Shown here: positions 2,279 through 53,810 of the stretch, one piece after another
How positions within the stretch are numbered: the stretch's first letter is position 1
Layout of the letters: the number at the start of each line of letters is the position of its first letter
Origin: Clostridia bacterium DTU025
Lineage (GTDB): Bacteria; Bacillota; DTU025
NCBI GenBank assembly: GCA_001513145.1
Contig: LFSP01000021.1
Span: 15,934 to 79,933, forward strand
DNA: 64,000 nucleotides
Reading direction: 5' to 3'
Position numbers and translations under genes: made by a program
Notes under the pieces: model-generated
What the model was told of the DNA's origin: nothing
What the model saw: only the letters and a program-made list of their open reading frames with translations
The model's database searches: none

Positions 2279-2380
2279 CGGAGCGCTTCATTGCGCTTCA
2301 CGACATCGATGATGGCACAACGCGTGTAGCGGGGAAAAGGCACAGCCGGCGCTGAGGCGCCGGCTTCCTTCTTCAATCCA
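2279..2380 (+). repeat. Copy A of a ~100-nt repeated structured intergenic element (P1 hairpin, conserved AUGGCACAACGC core, GC-rich 9-bp hairpin AGCCGGCGC-N3-GCGCCGGCU)
   Basis: About 83% identical to 34839-34940 over ~100 nt, including one C-G to U-G change that preserves P1 pairing. Lies 165 nt downstream of the hppA stop. Confidence 0.5.
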
Positions 2381-2681: not shown

Positions 2682-4196
2682 GTGCTAGTCATCATGGACG
2701 GCTGGGGCTATGCGCCGCCTTCGCCCGGCAACGCGATAGCTGCTGCACATACTCCAGTTTACGATAAGCTCCTTGCGGAATTCCCCTGGACCACGCTGCC
2801 TGCGCACGGCGAGGCCGTGGGACTGCCAGCGGGGCAGATGGGCGGTTCGGAAGTGGGCCACCTATGCCTGGGCGCAGGGCGGATCGTGTACCAGGATCTC
2901 ACCTACCTGAACAAGCTCGTCGAGGAGGGCGAGTTCCAGCGGAACCAGGTGCTGCTGGAGGCCATGAACAGGGTCGTTGCCTCGAGCAAGGCGCTGCACC
3001 TCATGGGCCTGGTGTCGCCCGGCGGGGTGCACTCGCACCAGGATCACATCTACACGCTGGTGGAGATGGCCAAGAAGGCAGGCGTCGGGCAGGTTTTCAT
3101 CCACGCCTTCCTCGACGGCAGGGACGTGCCGCCTGCCAGCGCCCTCCCGTTCATCGATGAGCTGGAGGCGAGGCTTTCCGAGATCGGCCTCGGGCGCATA
3201 GCCACCGTGAGCGGCCGTTACTACGCGATGGATCGCGACAACCGCTGGGATCGCACCAAGCGCGCATGGGATGCTATGGTGCATGGGGTTGGAGCCACCG
3301 CCACGAGCGCCAGGGCCGGCATCGAGGCGTCCTACGCCGCCGGCGTGACAGACGAGTTCGTGCTGCCCATAGTCATCGTTGACGACGACGGAGCCCCTCT
3401 CGCCACGGTGTCAGACGGCGACTCGTTGATCTTCTTCAACTTCAGGGGAGACAGGGCGCGCCAGCTAACGCAGGCCTTCAATATTGAGGAATTCGACAAG
3501 TTCGATCGGGGCCGCCGCCCGAGGGTTCACTACGTGTGCATGATGAAGTACCTCGACGCTGACATCCCCGTGGCCTTCAGCATGCCAGAGCCCCATCACG
3601 GCCTGGCCGAAACCCTCGCCCTCCACGGGCGCACCCAGCTTCACGCCGCCGAAACGGAGAAGTTCGCGCACGTGACGTTCTTCTTCAATGGGGGCCGAGA
3701 GAGGCCGTTCACTGGAGAGTACAGGGTGCTGGTGCCGTCTCCGAAAGTGGCAACCTATGACCTGATGCCCGAGATGAGCGCTGCGGGCGTGGCGGAGGAG
3801 GCCGTGAAGTGCATCCTCTCGGGCCATTTCGATTTCGCCGTGATAAACTTCGCCAACTGCGACATGGTGGGGCACACCGGCGTGTTCGATGCCGCTGTGA
3901 AGGCGGTGGAGGCTGTGGACAGGTGCGTCGGCCAGGTGTGGGATGCGGTTCGAAGCGTGGGGGGCGCGCTCCTCGTCACGGCGGATCACGGCAACGCCGA
4001 CGCCATGGTGGACCATGACACCGGCGGGCCCAGCACGGCGCACTCGCTGAACCCGGTGCCATTCATACTTGCGGGAACCGAGGCGCGCCGCCTGCGTGAC
4101 GGGGGCAACTTCGGCGACGTGGCCCCCACCATCCTCGAGCTCATGGGCATTCAGCAGCCGGCTGCCATGACGGGGGCGTCGCTCATAGCGGGGTAG
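2682..4196 (+). CDS. gpmI: 2,3-bisphosphoglycerate-independent phosphoglycerate mutase
   Basis: N-terminal KPVVLVIMDGWGY motif and length and motifs typical of iPGM (GSEVGHL, metal-binding Asp/His). GTG start at 2682. Confidence 0.92.
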   Translation: MLVIMDGWGYAPPSPGNAIAAAHTPVYDKLLAEFPWTTLPAHGEAVGLPAGQMGGSEVGHLCLGAGRIVYQDLTYLNKLVEEGEFQRNQVLLEAMNRVVASSKALHLMGLVSPGGVHSHQDHIYTLVEMAKKAGVGQVFIHAFLDGRDVPPASALPFIDELEARLSEIGLGRIATVSGRYYAMDRDNRWDRTKRAWDAMVHGVGATATSARAGIEASYAAGVTDEFVLPIVIVDDDGAPLATVSDGDSLIFFNFRGDRARQLTQAFNIEEFDKFDRGRRPRVHYVCMMKYLDADIPVAFSMPEPHHGLAETLALHGRTQLHAAETEKFAHVTFFFNGGRERPFTGEYRVLVPSPKVATYDLMPEMSAAGVAEEAVKCILSGHFDFAVINFANCDMVGHTGVFDAAVKAVEAVDRCVGQVWDAVRSVGGALLVTADHGNADAMVDHDTGGPSTAHSLNPVPFILAGTEARRLRDGGNFGDVAPTILELMGIQQPAAMTGASLIAG

Positions 4197-4570
4197 GGCG
4201 ATAGATGAAACCTGGCCGAGGCGAAGCTGTGAGCCAGCGCCTTCACCTGCAGGTAAAGCGCCGCGTTGGAGCGGCTGGGGGGCGCGTTCCTGTTCAGCGC
4301 CTCCACTGCAGGGGCCGAATCGGAGTACACTATAACGTTCCTGGCCTTGAGCTGCTTTGCGACCCGAAGCCCGTAAAGCACCGCGCCGATGCTGGCGTCG
4401 CGGTGGGCCGTTGGACCGTCCGGCACCTCGTGCTCTATCGGGGCTACCAGCTCGGCGATGACCTTTCCCGATGGACGCTGTATCGTGGTGATGGCGTTCC
4501 AGCGGGATCCGGCGGGGCCCGGCGCGTAGCACGGCACCGCTGAAGTGTAAACGCGGAAGACGTTATTCAT
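4151..4570 (-). CDS. Small RNase H-like domain protein (RVT_3 / RNase H-like fold)
   Basis: The ORF 4151..4708 is trimmed to the internal ATG (MNNVFRVYTS...), which has GGAGG 9 nt upstream. The motif NVIVYSDSAPAVEAL...AALYLQVKALAHSF resembles RNase H / RVT_3 domains. Its 3' end overlaps the gpmI 3' end by 46 nt. Confidence 0.45.
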   Translation of the reverse strand: MNNVFRVYTSAVPCYAPGPAGSRWNAITTIQRPSGKVIAELVAPIEHEVPDGPTAHRDASIGAVLYGLRVAKQLKARNVIVYSDSAPAVEALNRNAPPSRSNAALYLQVKALAHSFASARFHLSPYPAMSDAPVMAAGC

Positions 4571-4693
4571 CCTGGGCCGCCTCCTCATAATAGTAGCTGA
4601 CACCGCTAGAACGTGCATTCTCTCTAACCAGAGATTAACACGAACATACGTTCTAGTCAAGTGCCATGTGCGCTTTGCCAAGATAAGTAACCG

Positions 4694-6238
4694 ATGACAT
4701 CGGTACAAAAGGAGAAACGATACCCAGTGTCAAAGCATTTCGGTGCAGGCAATGACCCGCTGCACATCCGCCTCGACGAGTTCAGCGCTCCGCTGTTCCA
4801 GGCCCTGCTGGCCTACCAGCGCCTCGCGCCGGTAAGGTTCCACATGCCGGGCCACAAGGGCGGGCCGGGCTATCCGCTTGAGGTGGCAGAGGCGTTCCGC
4901 CGCCACATGTTCGGGATGGACGTCACCGAAACCCGTGGCCTTGACAACCTCCACGTGCCTTCCGGCGTGATCAGGGACGCGCAGGCCCTGGCCGCGCGCA
5001 CCTTCGGCGCGGACCACACGTTCTTCCTTACCAACGGCACCACCGCCGGCGTGCACGCCATGATCATGACCACGTGTAAGGAAGGGCAGAAGATCGTCAT
5101 CCCCCGCGACGCGCACCTTTCGGTGATCGGCGGCGTGATCCTGGCTGGGTTGGTGCCGGTGTTCGTGTACCCCACCATCGACCCGGAGTGGGGCATAAGC
5201 GTGGGCATCCCCCTGGAGGAGTACGAGCGGGCGCTGAAGGAGCATCCCGACGCCAAGGCCTGCCTCATCACCCGCCCCAACTACTACGGCATGGCGTGGG
5301 ACCTCAAGCCGCTGGTGAAGCTCTGTCACGATCATGGGATCCCCCTCCTTGTAGACGAGGCCCACGGAGCGCACCTGCACCTGCACGAGGATCTGCCTCT
5401 TTCCGCCGTAGACATGGGCGCCGACATGGTGGTGCAGAGCACCCACAAGACGCTGGGTTCCTTCACCGGAAGCTCCATGCTGCACCTTGTGGGCAACAGG
5501 ATACCGCCTGACCGCGTGCAGCGCATGCTGGCGATACTCCAGTCCACCAGCCCGTCGTACCTGCTGATGACTTCGCTCGACATCGCCGCCACCGTGGTGC
5601 GCATGCGCGGCCACCAGCTCATGGAGAAGGCCCTGGAGCTGTCTGCCCGGGCCCGCAAACGCCTCGCTGAGGTCGAGGGCGTCCGCGTTCTGGACCGCCC
5701 CGGCATGGACAGGCTGAAGCTCACGGTCTCCATGGTGAATAGGGGGATCGCCGGTTACGAGCTCAAGAGCAAGCTCATGGACGAGTACAACGTCAGGGTA
5801 GAGCTTGCTGACTTCGAGAACGTCGTCGCCTTCATCACCTACGCCGATACCGTTGAAACCGTGGATGCCCTGGTTGACGCCATCAAAGGCCTTTCTGAAC
5901 AGGGAGACCGGGGCGTGCGGGCCCGGGTGCACGCAGGCGACCAGGCCAGGTTCACCAGTGCGCTGTTCGCGCCGGCAGAGCGGGCGCTTCTGCCCAGACA
6001 GGCCACGCTGGCTGCGCACGAGCTCATCAAGCTGTCGCAGGCGGAGGGCAGGGTATGCGCCGAGGTGGTGGCGCCCTACCCTCCGGGCATCCCGCTGCTA
6101 TACCCTGGCGAGGTCATCGACAGCGAGCACCTGGACGTGATCGACACCGCCTTAAGCCTGGGCGCGGCGTTCCGGGGCCTGGCGGCCGGGTCAGACGGAG
6201 GCCTGGTGGTCACAGTTGTTAAGGACGTAAAGAGGTAG
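4694..6238 (+). CDS. Orn/Lys/Arg decarboxylase family PLP enzyme (B. subtilis YaaO-like)
   Basis: 514 aa with HMPGHKGG near the N-terminus and a PLP-lysine region (STHKTLGS). Sits directly upstream of tmk, as in Bacillus. The true start may be the GTG at ~4727. Confidence 0.85.
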   Translation: MTSVQKEKRYPVSKHFGAGNDPLHIRLDEFSAPLFQALLAYQRLAPVRFHMPGHKGGPGYPLEVAEAFRRHMFGMDVTETRGLDNLHVPSGVIRDAQALAARTFGADHTFFLTNGTTAGVHAMIMTTCKEGQKIVIPRDAHLSVIGGVILAGLVPVFVYPTIDPEWGISVGIPLEEYERALKEHPDAKACLITRPNYYGMAWDLKPLVKLCHDHGIPLLVDEAHGAHLHLHEDLPLSAVDMGADMVVQSTHKTLGSFTGSSMLHLVGNRIPPDRVQRMLAILQSTSPSYLLMTSLDIAATVVRMRGHQLMEKALELSARARKRLAEVEGVRVLDRPGMDRLKLTVSMVNRGIAGYELKSKLMDEYNVRVELADFENVVAFITYADTVETVDALVDAIKGLSEQGDRGVRARVHAGDQARFTSALFAPAERALLPRQATLAAHELIKLSQAEGRVCAEVVAPYPPGIPLLYPGEVIDSEHLDVIDTALSLGAAFRGLAAGSDGGLVVTVVKDVKR

Positions 6239-12100: not shown

Positions 12101-14101
12101 ATGAACAGGCAACCTTATTACATAACTACCCCGATCTATTACGTGAACGACCTGCCTCACCTGGGGCACGCTTACACCACCGTGGCGTGCGACGCCATGG
12201 CGAGATACAAGAGGATGCGCGGATACGACGTGTTCTTCCTCACCGGCACCGACGAGCACGGTCAGAAGATCGAGCGTAAGGCGGTGGCTGAGGGTTTCAC
12301 ACCGCAGGCCTACGTGGACAAGATCGCTGAGAGCTTCGTGCAGCTCTGGGAGACGCTGGACATCTCCAACGATGGCTTCATACGCACCACCGACCCTCGA
12401 CACGTCAAAGTGGTGCAAAGGGTGTTCCAGCAGCTCCTGGACAACGACGACATCTATAAAGGAAGCTACGAGGGGTGGTACTGCACCCCGTGCGAAGCCT
12501 TCTTCCCAGAGAGCCAGCTGGTTGACGGAAAGTGCCCGGACTGCGGCCGCGACGTGGAATGGACCCAGGAGGAAGCCTACTTCTTCCGCCTGTCGAAGTA
12601 CGGCAGGCCCCTGCTGGACCACATAGCGACACATCCGGAGTTCATAGAGCCGTCGTCCAGGCGCAATGAGATGGTGCGTTTCATCGAAGGGGGCCTTGAG
12701 GACCTGTGCGTGTCGCGCACCACCTTCACGTGGGGGATCCCGGTCCCGTTTGCGCCAGGCCATGTCGCCTACGTGTGGATAGACGCCCTCACCAACTATC
12801 TCACCGCCATAGGCTACCTGGGCGATGCGGAGATGTTCAACAAGTACTGGCCCGCGGACGTGCACGTCATGGGCAAGGAGATCGTGCGCTTCCACTCGGT
12901 GATCTGGCCGGCTATACTGATGTCCCTGGGCCTTCCCCTGCCGAAGCAGGTGTTCGGTCACGGCTGGTGGACGGTGGAAGGCGAGAAGATGTCCAAGTCC
13001 AAGGGCAACGTCATCAAGCCTGACGAATACGCCGCGGAGTTCGGCGTAGACGCGGTGCGCTACTTCATGCTGCGGGAGGTGCCGTTCGGGCAAGACGGCG
13101 ACTTCTCGAGAATGAACTTCATCTACCGCGTGAACGCGGACCTGGCGAATGACCTGGGGAACCTCTTGAGCAGGGCCACCGCCATGATAATCAAGTTCTG
13201 CGACGGCAAGGTGCCTGAGCCCGGTGTGCAGGAGGAGCCCGACAGGCTCCTTCCGGAGCTTGCAGCGGAGGTGCTGGAGGGCGCCGCTGCCGCCTACGAC
13301 AGGCTGGCGTTCAGCGACGCTTTGGCGGAAGTGTTCCGCCTGGTGGGGGCGGCTAACAAGTACATCGACGACGTTGCTCCCTGGAACCTGGCCAAAACCG
13401 AAGAGGGCAAGAGCAGGCTGGGCACTGTGCTCTACAACATCGCGGAGACTGTGCGGGTGTCGGCGGTGATGCTGGCGCCTGTGCTGACGCGGGGCCCGAG
13501 GCAGCTCTGGTACCAGCTTGGCATAGACGGCTCACCTGAGGAGGCCGGCTGGGAGGCGGCCCGCTGGGGCGGCCTGAAGCCAGGCACGCAGGTTAGGCGT
13601 GGCGACCCGGTGTACCCCAGGGTGGACGCCAAGGCGGAGGCACAGCGGCTCAAGGTAGCGGGCGGTTCGGCCAAGGCTGAAGCGGCTGCCCCGGCCAAAG
13701 TCACGGATGCTGAGCCTGCGGGACAGCCCGGACGGGGCGCGGAGGTTCAAGCGGCGCCGCCGGCCCAGGAGCAGATCACCATCGAGGACTTCGCCCGCAT
13801 AGACCTGCGGGTGGCCACGGTTCTTGAGGCTGAGGTGGTGAAGGGCTCCGACAAGCTGCTGAAGCTGCAGGTTGACCTGGGCTCCGAGCGGCGCCAGATC
13901 GTCGCTGGCATCGCAAAGCACTACGTCCCTGAGGACCTTGTGGGCAAGCAGGTGGTTGTAGTGGCCAACCTCAAGCCGGCGAAGCTGAGAGGCGAGATCT
14001 CCAACGGCATGTTGCTGGCGGCCTCCAGCGCCGGCGAGCCAGTGGTGGTGGCGGTGGTCAGCCCTGAAAAGGACCTGCCCGCCGGGAGCAAGGTGAAATA
14101 G
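12101..14101 (+). CDS. metG: Methionyl-tRNA synthetase with C-terminal tRNA-binding (EMAP/Trbp111-like) domain
   Basis: HLGHAYT (HIGH), KMSKS, Zn knuckle CPDCGRD, and a C-terminal ITIEDFARIDLRVATV...LLKLQVDLG domain. Confidence 0.95.
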   Translation: MNRQPYYITTPIYYVNDLPHLGHAYTTVACDAMARYKRMRGYDVFFLTGTDEHGQKIERKAVAEGFTPQAYVDKIAESFVQLWETLDISNDGFIRTTDPRHVKVVQRVFQQLLDNDDIYKGSYEGWYCTPCEAFFPESQLVDGKCPDCGRDVEWTQEEAYFFRLSKYGRPLLDHIATHPEFIEPSSRRNEMVRFIEGGLEDLCVSRTTFTWGIPVPFAPGHVAYVWIDALTNYLTAIGYLGDAEMFNKYWPADVHVMGKEIVRFHSVIWPAILMSLGLPLPKQVFGHGWWTVEGEKMSKSKGNVIKPDEYAAEFGVDAVRYFMLREVPFGQDGDFSRMNFIYRVNADLANDLGNLLSRATAMIIKFCDGKVPEPGVQEEPDRLLPELAAEVLEGAAAAYDRLAFSDALAEVFRLVGAANKYIDDVAPWNLAKTEEGKSRLGTVLYNIAETVRVSAVMLAPVLTRGPRQLWYQLGIDGSPEEAGWEAARWGGLKPGTQVRRGDPVYPRVDAKAEAQRLKVAGGSAKAEAAAPAKVTDAEPAGQPGRGAEVQAAPPAQEQITIEDFARIDLRVATVLEAEVVKGSDKLLKLQVDLGSERRQIVAGIAKHYVPEDLVGKQVVVVANLKPAKLRGEISNGMLLAASSAGEPVVVAVVSPEKDLPAGSKVK

Positions 14102-14103
14102 CC

Positions 14104-14904
14104 TTGCTCATCGATGCCCACTGCCATCTTGAGGACAGTTCATTCACAGAAGGCGCGAAGGCCGTGGCGGACCGGGCCCGGGCGGCAGGGGTCGTCGCCA
14201 TCATCAACCCCGGCTACGATCTGGAGTCGTCGAAGCTGGCCTTGGTGAACGCAGGGAACATCGAGGGGGTATATGCCCTGGTGGGCATCCACCCTCACGA
14301 CGCGAAGACCGCGGACGCTGCTGCGCTTGAGGAGCTGGAGCGCCTCCTGGGCGAGCCGGGAGTGGTGGGGATAGGCGAGATCGGCCTCGACTACTACAGG
14401 GACTTGTCGCCCCGGAACGACCAGATGCAGGCTTTCCGAGTCCAGATGGACATGGCGCGGAAACACGGCCTTCCCGTGCAGATACACAACAGGGACGCCC
14501 ATCGCGACACCCTTGACGTGATCCGTGAGTACGCCGGTAGCATCCCCGGCATCGTGCTGCATTGTTATTCGGGCAGCGTTGAGATGGCCAGGGAGCTTCT
14601 GAACCTGGGCTGCTTCATATCCATTGCTGGTCCGGTGACGTTCGCCAACGCCAGGAAAGCGGCGGACGTGGCGAGGTACGTGCCTCTCGACAGGATGCTG
14701 GTGGAGACGGACTCTCCATACTTGGCGCCGACACCCCACCGCGGACAGCGGAACGAGCCCGCGTACGTCAGGTACGTGGCTGAGCGGATAGCCGAGATCA
14801 AGGGGGTCAGCTTCGATGAGGTAGCGGAGGCCACTTCGGCGGTGGCCATGAGGATCTTCGGAATATCGCCTGCCGGGACGAGGGAGAATCACCCGGCAGG
14901 GTGA
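14104..14904 (+). CDS. tatD: TatD family metal-dependent DNase
   Basis: MLIDAHCHL... with conserved TatD His/Glu/Asp motifs. Located 2 nt after metG, as in Bacillus yabD. Confidence 0.9.
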   Translation: MLIDAHCHLEDSSFTEGAKAVADRARAAGVVAIINPGYDLESSKLALVNAGNIEGVYALVGIHPHDAKTADAAALEELERLLGEPGVVGIGEIGLDYYRDLSPRNDQMQAFRVQMDMARKHGLPVQIHNRDAHRDTLDVIREYAGSIPGIVLHCYSGSVEMARELLNLGCFISIAGPVTFANARKAADVARYVPLDRMLVETDSPYLAPTPHRGQRNEPAYVRYVAERIAEIKGVSFDEVAEATSAVAMRIFGISPAGTRENHPAG

Positions 14905-33235: not shown

Positions 33236-34834
33236 TTGGGCATCGAGATTCAACGGAGGGCCCTTTCATTCACTGAAGTGTCAGGTCAGGGCATGGCTGA
33301 GGTCAACGTGCAGCGGTCGGCCGCCTTGCCTGGACAGTATCCTGCCTTGAATCAGGCGGAGGTGCAGCCGATCCTCTGGGCACATGGCACTGCCGTGGTC
33401 ACGTCGGCTGAGGCTGGCGACGGGACCGTGAAGGTGGCAGGGCACATTGTGTCGTCCATTGTGTACCTGCCTGAAGGACAGGGCGAAGCGCAGGTGGTGG
33501 AGCTTGCGGAACCGGTGTTTGAGGCCACAGTGGAGGTGCCGAACGCCAGGCCGGGCGACTGGGCGGAAGCCGTTGCCACACTGATCTACCTCAACGCCGA
33601 GCCCACGGGCTCCAAGGGGTTGATGCTTTCAGGGGCCCTGGCTGTGTCGGCCAGGACGTTGCGGGACCACTTCGTCGAGGTGGCGGAGTCGGCGGTTGCC
33701 GTGGGGCCGTCGAAGATCACCGTGAAGACCGAGGATGTGACGGTAGAGCGTCACGTGCCGTTGGAGCCCCAGGACGCGGTGTTGGAGGAGAGCCTGGGCC
33801 ACTGGCAAGTGGGCGACGAGGCCCAGCACAGGCCGTGCGCGGCATCGGCCAGCGTGAGAGTGGTTGGATGTGACGCGTCTGACGGTAAAGTGGTGGTGAG
33901 CTGCGAGGTGGCCGTGGAGGTTGCCTGCGTGCAGGGGTCAGGCAGGATCGTCGACATCCTGCGCAGGGAGCGGCTGCCGCTTTCCATCACGGTGGTGGCG
34001 CCTGAAGCCGGACGCGGGATGAGTGCCCGGGCCGATGCATGGGTTGAGCGGGCCAGCGCATCGGTGGACTCCGACGGCAACGTCCATGTGAAGGTGCACG
34101 TGGTGACGAGGCCCACACTGGTGGCGCACGAGAGGGTCAACGTGGTCACGGCCATACAGAGCGAGACCGCGGAGATCGTGGACGTCGACACCGTCTGGAT
34201 CGTGGGCGAACGGGTGGTGGCGGAAGGCTCAATGCAGATAGACATTGCCGACAGCGTCCCCGTGCACGCCATCGCCGGGGCCGGTGCCATCACGGGCATG
34301 GAGGAGATACGGTCCAGCCACGGCTATGTGGGCGTCACCGACGTGGAGGCTGGCGAAGGGGAGGCATCGCTCAGGGGAATCCTCGCCGTGAGGGTCATCG
34401 CCGAGGATATATTCGAAGACCAGGACGCGGAGTACACGTACGCCAAGGCCATGGACATTCCGGTGGAGTTCTCCGACACCGTCGAGATCCCCGACATAAC
34501 AAGCGCAGACAGGCTCGAGGTGCGCAGCGTCAGCCACGCTTTGGCGGCAGGCCGCGTTGGCGCCTCCAAGATGGAAGTGGAGGGCACGGTCAGGTTCGAT
34601 CTGGTGGCATACAGGCCAATCAGGGTTGCTGTGGTGAAGTCGGCATACACCATCACTCCGGTGCAGCTGGATCCGTACGCCTTGACCTTCTGCGTGGTTG
34701 GGCCTACCGACACTCTGGCCAGGATAGCCAGGAAGTACGGGGTTACAGCGGACGCGCTGGCTGCGGCGAACTCGCTTTCGCCCACCGATGCGTTGATTCC
34801 GGGAGAGAAGATCTACATACCGGCGGCGCGGTGA
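33236..34834 (+). CDS. LysM-domain protein with repeated beta-rich N-terminal domains (SpoVID/SipL-like spore-envelope candidate)
   Basis: C-terminal LysM (YALTFCVVGPTDTLARIARKYGVTADALAAANSL...IPGEKIYIP). TTG start with a strong GGGAGGGAGG RBS. Confidence 0.7.
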   Translation: MGIEIQRRALSFTEVSGQGMAEVNVQRSAALPGQYPALNQAEVQPILWAHGTAVVTSAEAGDGTVKVAGHIVSSIVYLPEGQGEAQVVELAEPVFEATVEVPNARPGDWAEAVATLIYLNAEPTGSKGLMLSGALAVSARTLRDHFVEVAESAVAVGPSKITVKTEDVTVERHVPLEPQDAVLEESLGHWQVGDEAQHRPCAASASVRVVGCDASDGKVVVSCEVAVEVACVQGSGRIVDILRRERLPLSITVVAPEAGRGMSARADAWVERASASVDSDGNVHVKVHVVTRPTLVAHERVNVVTAIQSETAEIVDVDTVWIVGERVVAEGSMQIDIADSVPVHAIAGAGAITGMEEIRSSHGYVGVTDVEAGEGEASLRGILAVRVIAEDIFEDQDAEYTYAKAMDIPVEFSDTVEIPDITSADRLEVRSVSHALAAGRVGASKMEVEGTVRFDLVAYRPIRVAVVKSAYTITPVQLDPYALTFCVVGPTDTLARIARKYGVTADALAAANSLSPTDALIPGEKIYIPAAR

Positions 34835-34838
34835 GCTC

Positions 34839-34940
34839 CGAGCGTTCCGTGGCGCTTCGCGATCTCGGGGATGGCACAACGCATGTAGTTGGAAAAAGGC
34901 AAAGCCGGCGCTGGGCGCCGGCTACCACCTTCAACTTGCG
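34839..34940 (+). repeat. Copy B of the ~100-nt repeated structured element (begins 5 nt after the LysM gene stop)
   Basis: About 83% identity to 2279-2380 with the same hairpins (GAGCGU..GCGCUU; AGCCGGCGC-UGG-GCGCCGGCU). Confidence 0.5.
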
Positions 34941-35096
34941 CAACCGGGCCGAGGCGGAAGCGGAGCTCTTTGCGTGTAGACGACCCGTGGCTGGGTCGTT
35001 GTGTCTGTTCGCCTCCGCCTGTCGAACTGTTTCCGTATTCTCCAACACTGCCTGCCACTTGCAGAGCAGCTACTCGCCGGTAACCACATCGAACGA

Positions 35097-35140
35097 GAGA
35101 GCCCCCGCCAAGCACAGGCAGGGGCTCTCTCGTGTTGATT
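35097..35140 (+). terminator. Hairpin GAGAGCCCC-N15-GGGGCUCUC followed by GUGUUGAUUUG
   Basis: 9-bp perfect stem in the intergenic region upstream of the helicase gene. Confidence 0.3.
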
Positions 35141-35364
35141 TGACGCTTACGCGCGCCGCTGGATAGGATGACGGTTTGACGTTGACAGGAGGAAGGAGGC
35201 GCCAGAGCGTCGTCTTTACATTACCTCCGCAAGCTGGCGGATACGCCTGCGCGCCTCGGAGCGCTTGGCGGCACGTGCTCAGGTAGCCTTCCCTTGCTGC
35301 GAAGCCCGGCCCCTCGTTTGCAGGGAATCCTACGGCTTCAGGAGAACAATACGTATGGCTATGA

Positions 35365-53735: not shown

Positions 53736-53810
53736 TGGGGCGTCGCCAAGCGGTAAGGCACGGGACTTTGGATCCTGCATTCGGAGGTTCGAATCCTCCC
53801 GCCCCAGCCA
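53736..53810 (+). tRNA. tRNA-Gln (anticodon UUG)
   Basis: Cloverleaf folded by hand: 7-bp acceptor stem with U1-A72 and G73 (tRNA-Gln identity), D-arm GCCA/AGGC, anticodon stem CGGGA/UCCUG with loop CUUUGGA, T-arm GGAGG-TTCGAAT-CCTCC, encoded CCA. Confidence 0.85.

Follow-up and report, generated by a model that had tools for sequence, protein, structure and literature searches.

The window, meaning the whole 64,000-nucleotide stretch of DNA that was analyzed, belongs to an uncultured Bacillota lineage recovered from anaerobic-digester assemblies and has a G+C content of 63.3%. Identical proteins are found in three NCBI MAGs and on many metagenome contigs. The genes follow the origin-proximal order of spore-forming Firmicutes: tmk, holB, a yaaT-like gene, an abrB-like gene, metG, ksgA, yabG and veg, and then an ispE-like gene, glmU, prs, pth, mfd, spoVT and mazG. 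The sole Rfam or ARAGORN match in the window is a tRNA-Gln gene (anticodon TTG) at 53736-53810. Two intergenic regions of the window contain related DNA. One lies between hppA (stop at 2114) and gpmI (2682), and the other between a LysM gene (stop at 34834) and a DEAD/MZB helicase gene; the copies found there are referred to as A and B, respectively.

When the repeat was compared with the whole window by blastn, positions 2281-2376 (copy A) aligned with 34840-34934 (copy B) at 81.25% identity over 96 nt (E = 6.5e-21), and a longer alignment joined 2266-2376 to 34823-34934 at 79.6% over 113 nt. This pair is the longest non-coding direct repeat of the window (family D8), and blastn returned no third copy within it. 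The first-pass annotation had noticed the similarity and put it at ~83% over ~100 nt, slightly above the 81% that blastn gives. The sequence it described at 2279-2380 and 34839-34940 is present, but these limits capture only the core of a larger element that covers ~2141-2493 and ~34826-35030. Its list of parts is borne out in both copies: a hairpin of GAGCGC with GCGCUU in which a C-to-U change leaves a wobble pair, the AUGGCACAACGC block followed by an A-run, a 9-bp hairpin (AGCCGGCGC/GCGCCGGCU) at 2344-2365 in copy A and 34903-34923 in copy B, and a U-tract on the minus strand. The distances given for the repeat were likewise correct, with copy A placed 165 nt past the hppA stop and ~300 nt ahead of gpmI, and copy B placed 5 nt after the LysM stop.

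A pattern scan of metagenomes returned 93 loci, one of which (L129) carried a true further copy. This copy, designated C, lies between two convergent genes, lplA and Fe-ADH, and is identical in six other assemblies. It aligns with 2177-2376 of copy A over 201 nt (72.6% identity, E = 2e-26) and with 34848-35001 of copy B over 156 nt (75%, E = 4e-23). The tetranucleotide correlation between L129 and pieces of the window is 0.92-0.93, compared with 0.93 among the window pieces themselves and 0.77-0.88 for known relatives. Because this signature is like the window's own, copy C probably comes from the same or a very close species. Three distinct copies are known in all, at three unrelated loci, and one true match among 93 scan loci suggests fewer copies than would be expected of a mobile repeat. 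Scanning genome collections with GATGGCACAACGCNTGTAG gave 13 chance matches only, and the source species was not among them. Copies A and B fit both scan patterns exactly, yet neither the species-representative nor the metagenome collection returned a match from the source species, for which NCBI MAGs and JGI contigs exist. Possible reasons are that the representative genome is without these contigs or that each collection is a subset.

Anatomy of the element

The full extent of the element, ~340 nt, was revealed by copy C. Copies A and C correspond part for part, in the same order and with equal spacings, over nearly the whole intergenic region, and the 100-nt repeat forms the conserved middle of this gene-less, hairpin-rich palindromic element. 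Reading from its start, the element consists of an outer inverted repeat (GAGCGTCAAACC...), two CGACC-loop-GGGTCG hairpins and ~45 variable nt; then of a centre made up of the 19-mer GATGGCACAACGCRTGTAG, an A-run, the 9-bp GC hairpin with its T-run, CTTCAA and a spacer; and finally of two hairpins in the inverted orientation and the outer inverted repeat. Each arm has two hairpins, and the spacer between the inverted hairpin pairs comes to ~155 nt.

Copy A is full-length and lies at 2141-2493 on the plus strand (~353 nt), as judged from its collinearity with copy C, its fold and its size, which corresponds to the extra DNA relative to the locus L041 described below. The left arm of its outer inverted repeat (27 nt, 2154-2180) is 81% complementary to the right arm at 2465-2491, and the terminal 10 nt of these arms, GAGCGTCAAA and TTTGACGCTC, are perfectly complementary. 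Inward of this left arm are a hairpin unit at 2203-2220 (CGACCCATGGACGGGTCG) and a second, partly decayed unit at 2235-2252 (CGGCCTGCCGGTGGGGCG), the latter within an inner inverted repeat that pairs 2238-2273 with 2418-2453 (72%). The conserved core at 2266-2376, which includes the repeat as first annotated, carries the 19-nt motif at 2311-2329 (GATGGCACAACGCGTGTAG; the same in copy C, with a single G-to-A difference in copy B) and the GC hairpin. On the right follow a decayed hairpin unit at 2402-2419 (TGCCCCATGGATAGGTCG) and a further unit at 2439-2456 (CGACCCACCGGCGGGTTG). Copy C (~340 nt) has the same nested arrangement, with 13915-13936 pairing with 14166-14187 (86%) and 13948-13973 with 14129-14154 (81%). 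Both copies therefore have nested, long-range terminal inverted repeats that flank the core, as MITEs do, and both are below the ~500 nt that bounds MITE sizes. The inverted orientation of the arms is real, since the flanks beyond the hairpin stems are complementary too. Folded end to end, copy A gives -185.9 kcal/mol (z = -5.3) and copy C gives -144.5 kcal/mol (z = -3.7).

Copy B (34826-35030, plus strand) is truncated at its 5' end. It starts in the last LysM codons and is without the left arm. Its 19-nt motif (GATGGCACAACGCATGTAG) is at 34870-34888, its GC hairpin at 34903-34923, and a right-arm hairpin unit (CGACCCGTGGCTGGGTCG) at 34981-34998, with GTGTAG just before it. When ~105 kb of sampled DNA was searched with a hairpin-unit HMM, such units turned up nowhere but next to the three cores and, as a single weak match, in L001. 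This match is a lone, degenerate hairpin (GACCCACCGGTGTGTC; L001 2232-2252, nhmmer E = 0.55) that resembles CGACC..GGGTCG and is intergenic and without a core. Between its genes for a peptidase M28 and an HTH_6/SIS regulator, L001 also has ~5 tandem copies of the 11-nt unit CGGCTACGGTT (2406-2463; ~7.6 kb upstream of position 1 of the window).

No ORF is common to the copies, substitutions among them are without codon periodicity, and no transposase gene was found in the ~105 kb sampled, window included. A protein-coding or small-peptide reading was rejected on these grounds: mismatches in the A/B alignment fall in the three phases as 7/2/5 (hand count), third positions in the core are invariant, and the frames break. 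A MAQRV/M mini-ORF has no Shine-Dalgarno sequence ahead of it, and a type I toxin was rejected for want of a small hydrophobic ORF. An origin from a plasmid, phage or virus was rejected too, as the respective collections contain no similar sequence, and a literature string search for the motif returned only unrelated primer or viral matches.

Probable insertion sites and their counterparts in relatives

Both loci of the window were compared with their orthologues. At the first, hppA orthologues of 83, 77 and 75% identity keep the hppA-gpmI synteny and the promoter TGTGATACTATAAT and are without the element. From the hppA stop, the -10 box is 479 nt away in the window and 119 nt away in the nearest relative, L041; if 2141-2504 (364 nt, comprising copy A and one of its direct repeats) is deleted from the window, 115 nt remain. 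By this arithmetic, the length of copy A would account for the extra hppA-gpmI DNA. The direct repeat in question is the 11-nt CATCCGCGGCG, found at 2130-2140 on the left and 2494-2504 on the right. It is the longest direct repeat between the flanks, was equalled or bettered in 2 of 2000 shuffles, and is a candidate target-site duplication, placed 13 nt outside the left inverted repeat. Further downstream, and outside the element, a hairpin at 2531-2570 is the probable native hppA terminator; it stands directly ahead of the gpmI promoter (TGATACTATAAT, 2594-2605) and fixes the insertion site of copy A to between the hppA stop and this terminator. The gpmI promoter, with its extended -10 element, and the start of the leader (2583-2660) are conserved in L041, L043 and L044, the relatives with 75-83% hppA identity.

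At the second locus, LysM orthologues from four relatives (75, 75, 63 and 44% identity) are likewise without the element. The LysM-helicase arrangement is kept in L031, L033 and L037, the relatives for which the downstream flank was recovered. There, the LysM stop is ~140-150 nt from the called helicase start, and a plain terminator hairpin is followed by TTTGCAGGGAATC. From the LysM stop to TTTGCAGGGAATC the distance is 482 nt in the window, compared with ~60 nt in L031 and L033. Copy B takes up one part of this interval, and the ~285 nt between its end and TTTGCAGGGAATC (35031-35316) are further lineage-specific DNA that the relatives are without. Within this DNA are a hairpin with a 14-bp stem and one mismatch at 35095-35131, followed by GTGTTGATTT, and a promoter-like site, TTGACG-18-TAGGAT, at 35140-35169. 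The segment TTTGCAGGGAATC...GGAGAACAATAC itself (35317-35352), immediately 5' of the helicase gene, is conserved in L031, L033 and L037, whose remaining intergenic sequence is unalignable around it; this segment may be a promoter or leader.

Searches with blastn and a core HMM detected no core in the relatives, and both loci were empty, with short spacers, in every syntenic relative found, as expected of MITE insertion sites. Flanking direct repeats were seen at copy A only and not at copies B and C; copies A and C both have CATCCG on their left. Strain-level comparisons were uninformative: the copies are identical at all 17 strain-level loci, or at 23 when the 6 for copy C are included.

The 32.5 kb between copies A and B are housekeeping DNA and hence not an island. 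A reading of the two copies as att sites or direct repeats of such an island was rejected, as the intervening genes (tmk, holB, yaaT, metG, ksgA, yabG and veg among them) are syntenic in relatives. We also discarded a TR/VR pair of a DGR, because by inspection only 4-5 of the ~17 mismatches involve A in either copy and both copies are non-coding. The one nearby gene that might have suggested a DGR reverse transcriptase (PF13456, RVT_3; 4151-4708, minus strand) is RNase-H-like and occurs also in relatives without the element; it is antisense to gpmI and overlaps its 3' end, an arrangement that the relatives retain.

The first-pass annotation had left three options side by side, namely a 3'-UTR-derived small RNA, a binding site for an RNA-binding protein, and a small mobile MITE-like repeat. 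It is the last of these that gained ground, through the inverted repeats, the lack of an ORF, the direct repeat at copy A, the empty sites and the third locus. With moderate confidence, we favor a low-copy, lineage-restricted, MITE-like palindromic element, non-autonomous and mobile or a relic of such an element, that inserted into 3' UTRs. Its copies would have landed in intergenic DNA shortly 3' of a stop codon and in one orientation with respect to the gene that ends there, copy A after the hppA stop and ahead of the native terminator, and copy B against the LysM stop, where the left arm would have been lost. Each copy would then lie within a 3' UTR and hence be co-transcribed.

Conservation of the centre and competing explanations

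Conservation is uneven along the element. In the three copies, 32 of the 34 columns in the core motif and stems are invariant, compared with 37 of the 69 elsewhere (Fisher p = 1.7e-5). The 19-nt motif is invariant in 18 of 19 columns, whereas neighboring columns are invariant in only ~50%, and the ~60 nt 5' of the GC hairpin are conserved as well. A centre better conserved than the arms is the opposite of what is typical for an active MITE.

The first-pass annotation had described the repeat as a structured element, but a reading as a conserved structured RNA found no support. The 5' hairpin it described is shared by copies A and B and broken in copy C, where 3 of 6 pairs are lost, and only the GC hairpin is robust. 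Moreover, covariation was absent from either strand, with no pair changed on both sides among copies A, B and C, a comparison of three sequences that has low power. It had matched the repeat to no riboswitch or leader family, and the known Rfam family that would have counted against its reading did not turn up in Rfam 15 either. At gathering thresholds, the window yielded only the tRNA and L129 yielded nothing, and E-value scans of A, B and C gave noise, the best being Thr_leader at 17.1 bits (threshold 55), which matched the terminator hairpin only; a known RNA family was thus rejected in both modes. On the minus strand, a second hairpin holding the 19-mer was considered and dropped, since its energy is unexceptional (z = -0.3 to -2.0), even though pairing is kept in 31 of 33 cells.

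The GC hairpin (AGCCGGCGC/GCGCCGGCT at 2344-2365 and 34903-34923) has an invariant 9-bp stem with 8 G-C pairs and a loop of 3-4 nt, and it stands between an A-run and a T-run. The suggestion that it could act as a bidirectional terminator is a reasonable one. The minus-strand pattern is present in copies A, B and C, while the plus-strand pattern is present in A and not in B and C; copy A is thus terminator-like on both strands and copy B on the minus strand only. The U-tracts are interrupted, and the plus-strand ones of B and C are poor. At copy C, the GC hairpin is the first site with a terminator pattern downstream of the minus-strand Fe-ADH gene; at copies A and B, there is no minus-strand gene upstream. 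Judged by its sequence pattern, the GC hairpin is a probable terminator that would work best for minus-strand transcripts. In the MITE-like scenario it would stop or stabilize transcripts, most clearly those of the minus strand, and such a role would explain why the centre has stayed intact as the arms decayed.

Alternatively, the core could be a module for a small RNA, released from the upstream 3' UTR by cleavage or ending at the GC hairpin, in which the 19-nt motif is a seed or protein-binding site and the arms are incidental or a vehicle. All three copies are downstream of a gene and co-oriented with it, the invariant 19-mer is apparently single-stranded and stands 14 nt ahead of a strong hairpin, and the core is intact even in the truncated copy B, all of which would suit such a module. 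We nevertheless consider it unlikely, because no conserved promoter was found upstream of the core in any of the three copies, the opposite strand has the better U-tract, and the element is missing from relatives that retain the neighboring genes; the failure to match Rfam, the loss of the 5' hairpin in copy C and the lack of a covarying pair count against it as well. A version that combines mobility with function is about equally doubtful. Here, the element would be a vehicle that spreads a module useful to the host (the 19-nt motif plus the GC hairpin), acting as a 3'-UTR regulatory site or small RNA behind hppA, the SipL-like LysM sporulation gene and lplA, with selection keeping the module even in the truncated copy. 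The 19-nt motif may bind a protein or a complementary RNA.

Two promoter- or RNA-level readings of the core were tried and rejected. A sigma-54 promoter has TTGC and a GC at -12 in its consensus, whereas the core has TGGCAC-N5 followed by GTGT or ATGT and is missing the -12 GC; a start at that site would also transcribe the hairpin alone. A CsrA-type sponge was set aside since the hairpin loops have no GGA in common.

A further rival concerns the way in which the element would have moved. Transfer as single-stranded DNA by an HUH/Y1 transposase, which would make it REPIN-like (RAYT) or a PATE-like derivative of IS200/IS605, would fit arms built of short GC-rich palindromes inverted around a spacer. 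GTGTAG or GTGTAA abuts one hairpin on its 5' side in copies B and C, a GTAG is present in the core, and the missing flanking duplications at B and C would be expected too. Against this, copy A has its 11-nt direct repeat, and HUH elements make none; the spacer is far longer than that of REPINs; the hairpin units next to the cores, plus the weak solitary one, are not the tens or hundreds that such a system would leave; and a Y1 transposase was not found in the ~105 kb sampled. This origin appears to us a shade less probable than a small RNA.

It is improbable, though somewhat less far-fetched than the protein-site reading below, that old duplications left the copies behind as inert relics, whose intact centre reflects slow decay of the GC stem or gene conversion rather than function. 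The identity of 23 out of 23 strain-level loci, which gives no population signal of selection, and the decay of several hairpin units in copy A agree with inertness. However, the 19-nt motif is not a stem and yet is far better conserved than its surroundings, and recent conversion is made less likely by the equal distances among the three copies (75-78%). Least probable is a double-stranded DNA site, formed by the motif and/or the GC palindrome, for a nucleoid, segregation or regulatory protein of the host: conservation at the sequence level without covariation, the low copy number and the origin-proximal position of the window (by gene order) would accord with one, but the motif is without dyad symmetry, its ACGCGT palindrome is lost in copy B, it bears by inspection no resemblance to sigma-54 sites, cre, Rex sites or DnaA boxes, and relatives do without it.

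Returning to the MITE-like element, a practical consequence is that the repeat pair should not be filed as a new riboswitch or small RNA class, as it is the middle of a palindromic insertion that is missing in relatives. For annotation, it can be used as a lineage-specific repeat of an uncultured, high-GC, spore-former-like Bacillota from digesters. The insertion would lengthen 3' UTRs and place a strong hairpin behind housekeeping and sporulation genes. The one feature that merits experiments is the 19-nt motif, sharply conserved in an element that is otherwise decaying; it could exemplify how a mobile element supplies a module for transcript ends or binding that can be used again.

Relation to known systems

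Small RNAs derived from 3' UTRs, such as CpxQ, SroC and DapZ, share with the element a conserved single-stranded stretch just 5' of a terminator hairpin at an mRNA end. They differ in that the element is absent at orthologous loci and has its better terminator on the other strand. Bidirectional intrinsic (Rho-independent) terminators are comparable in having a GC stem between an A-run and a T-run, and copy C lies between convergent genes. Unlike a plain terminator, the element has interrupted U-tracts, shows the plus-strand pattern in copy A only, and is conserved over ~60 nt upstream.

REPINs consist of two REP palindromes inverted around a short spacer; they are ~100 nt long, are present in tens to hundreds of copies and flank a RAYT gene (PMC3337134, PMC3116915). 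The element resembles them in its short GC-rich palindromes inverted around a spacer, in its intergenic position behind genes and in the GTAG-like tetranucleotide by one hairpin. Unlike REPINs, it has a spacer of ~155 nt with a conserved core of its own and hairpin units only beside cores, the REPIN copy number of tens to hundreds per genome was not reached in ~105 kb, and no RAYT gene was found in the sampled DNA.

The closest likeness is to the MITEs and intergenic palindromic repeats of bacteria, which include ERIC/IRU, the Correia elements of Neisseria, RUP and BOX of pneumococci and bcr1 of Bacillus cereus. The element is unlike these in having three known copies, a centre conserved above its ends, no known parent insertion sequence and no sequence similarity in plasmid, phage and viral collections or literature strings, and its 11-nt direct repeat exceeds most target duplications in length and is offset from the inverted repeat. 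It is like them in being 100-400 nt long and without an ORF, with imperfect terminal inverted repeats and a fold into a single long hairpin. As with these repeats, it is found in transcribed intergenic DNA by gene ends, the orthologous sites in relatives are empty, one copy has a flanking direct repeat, and its internal hairpins can influence transcript ends.
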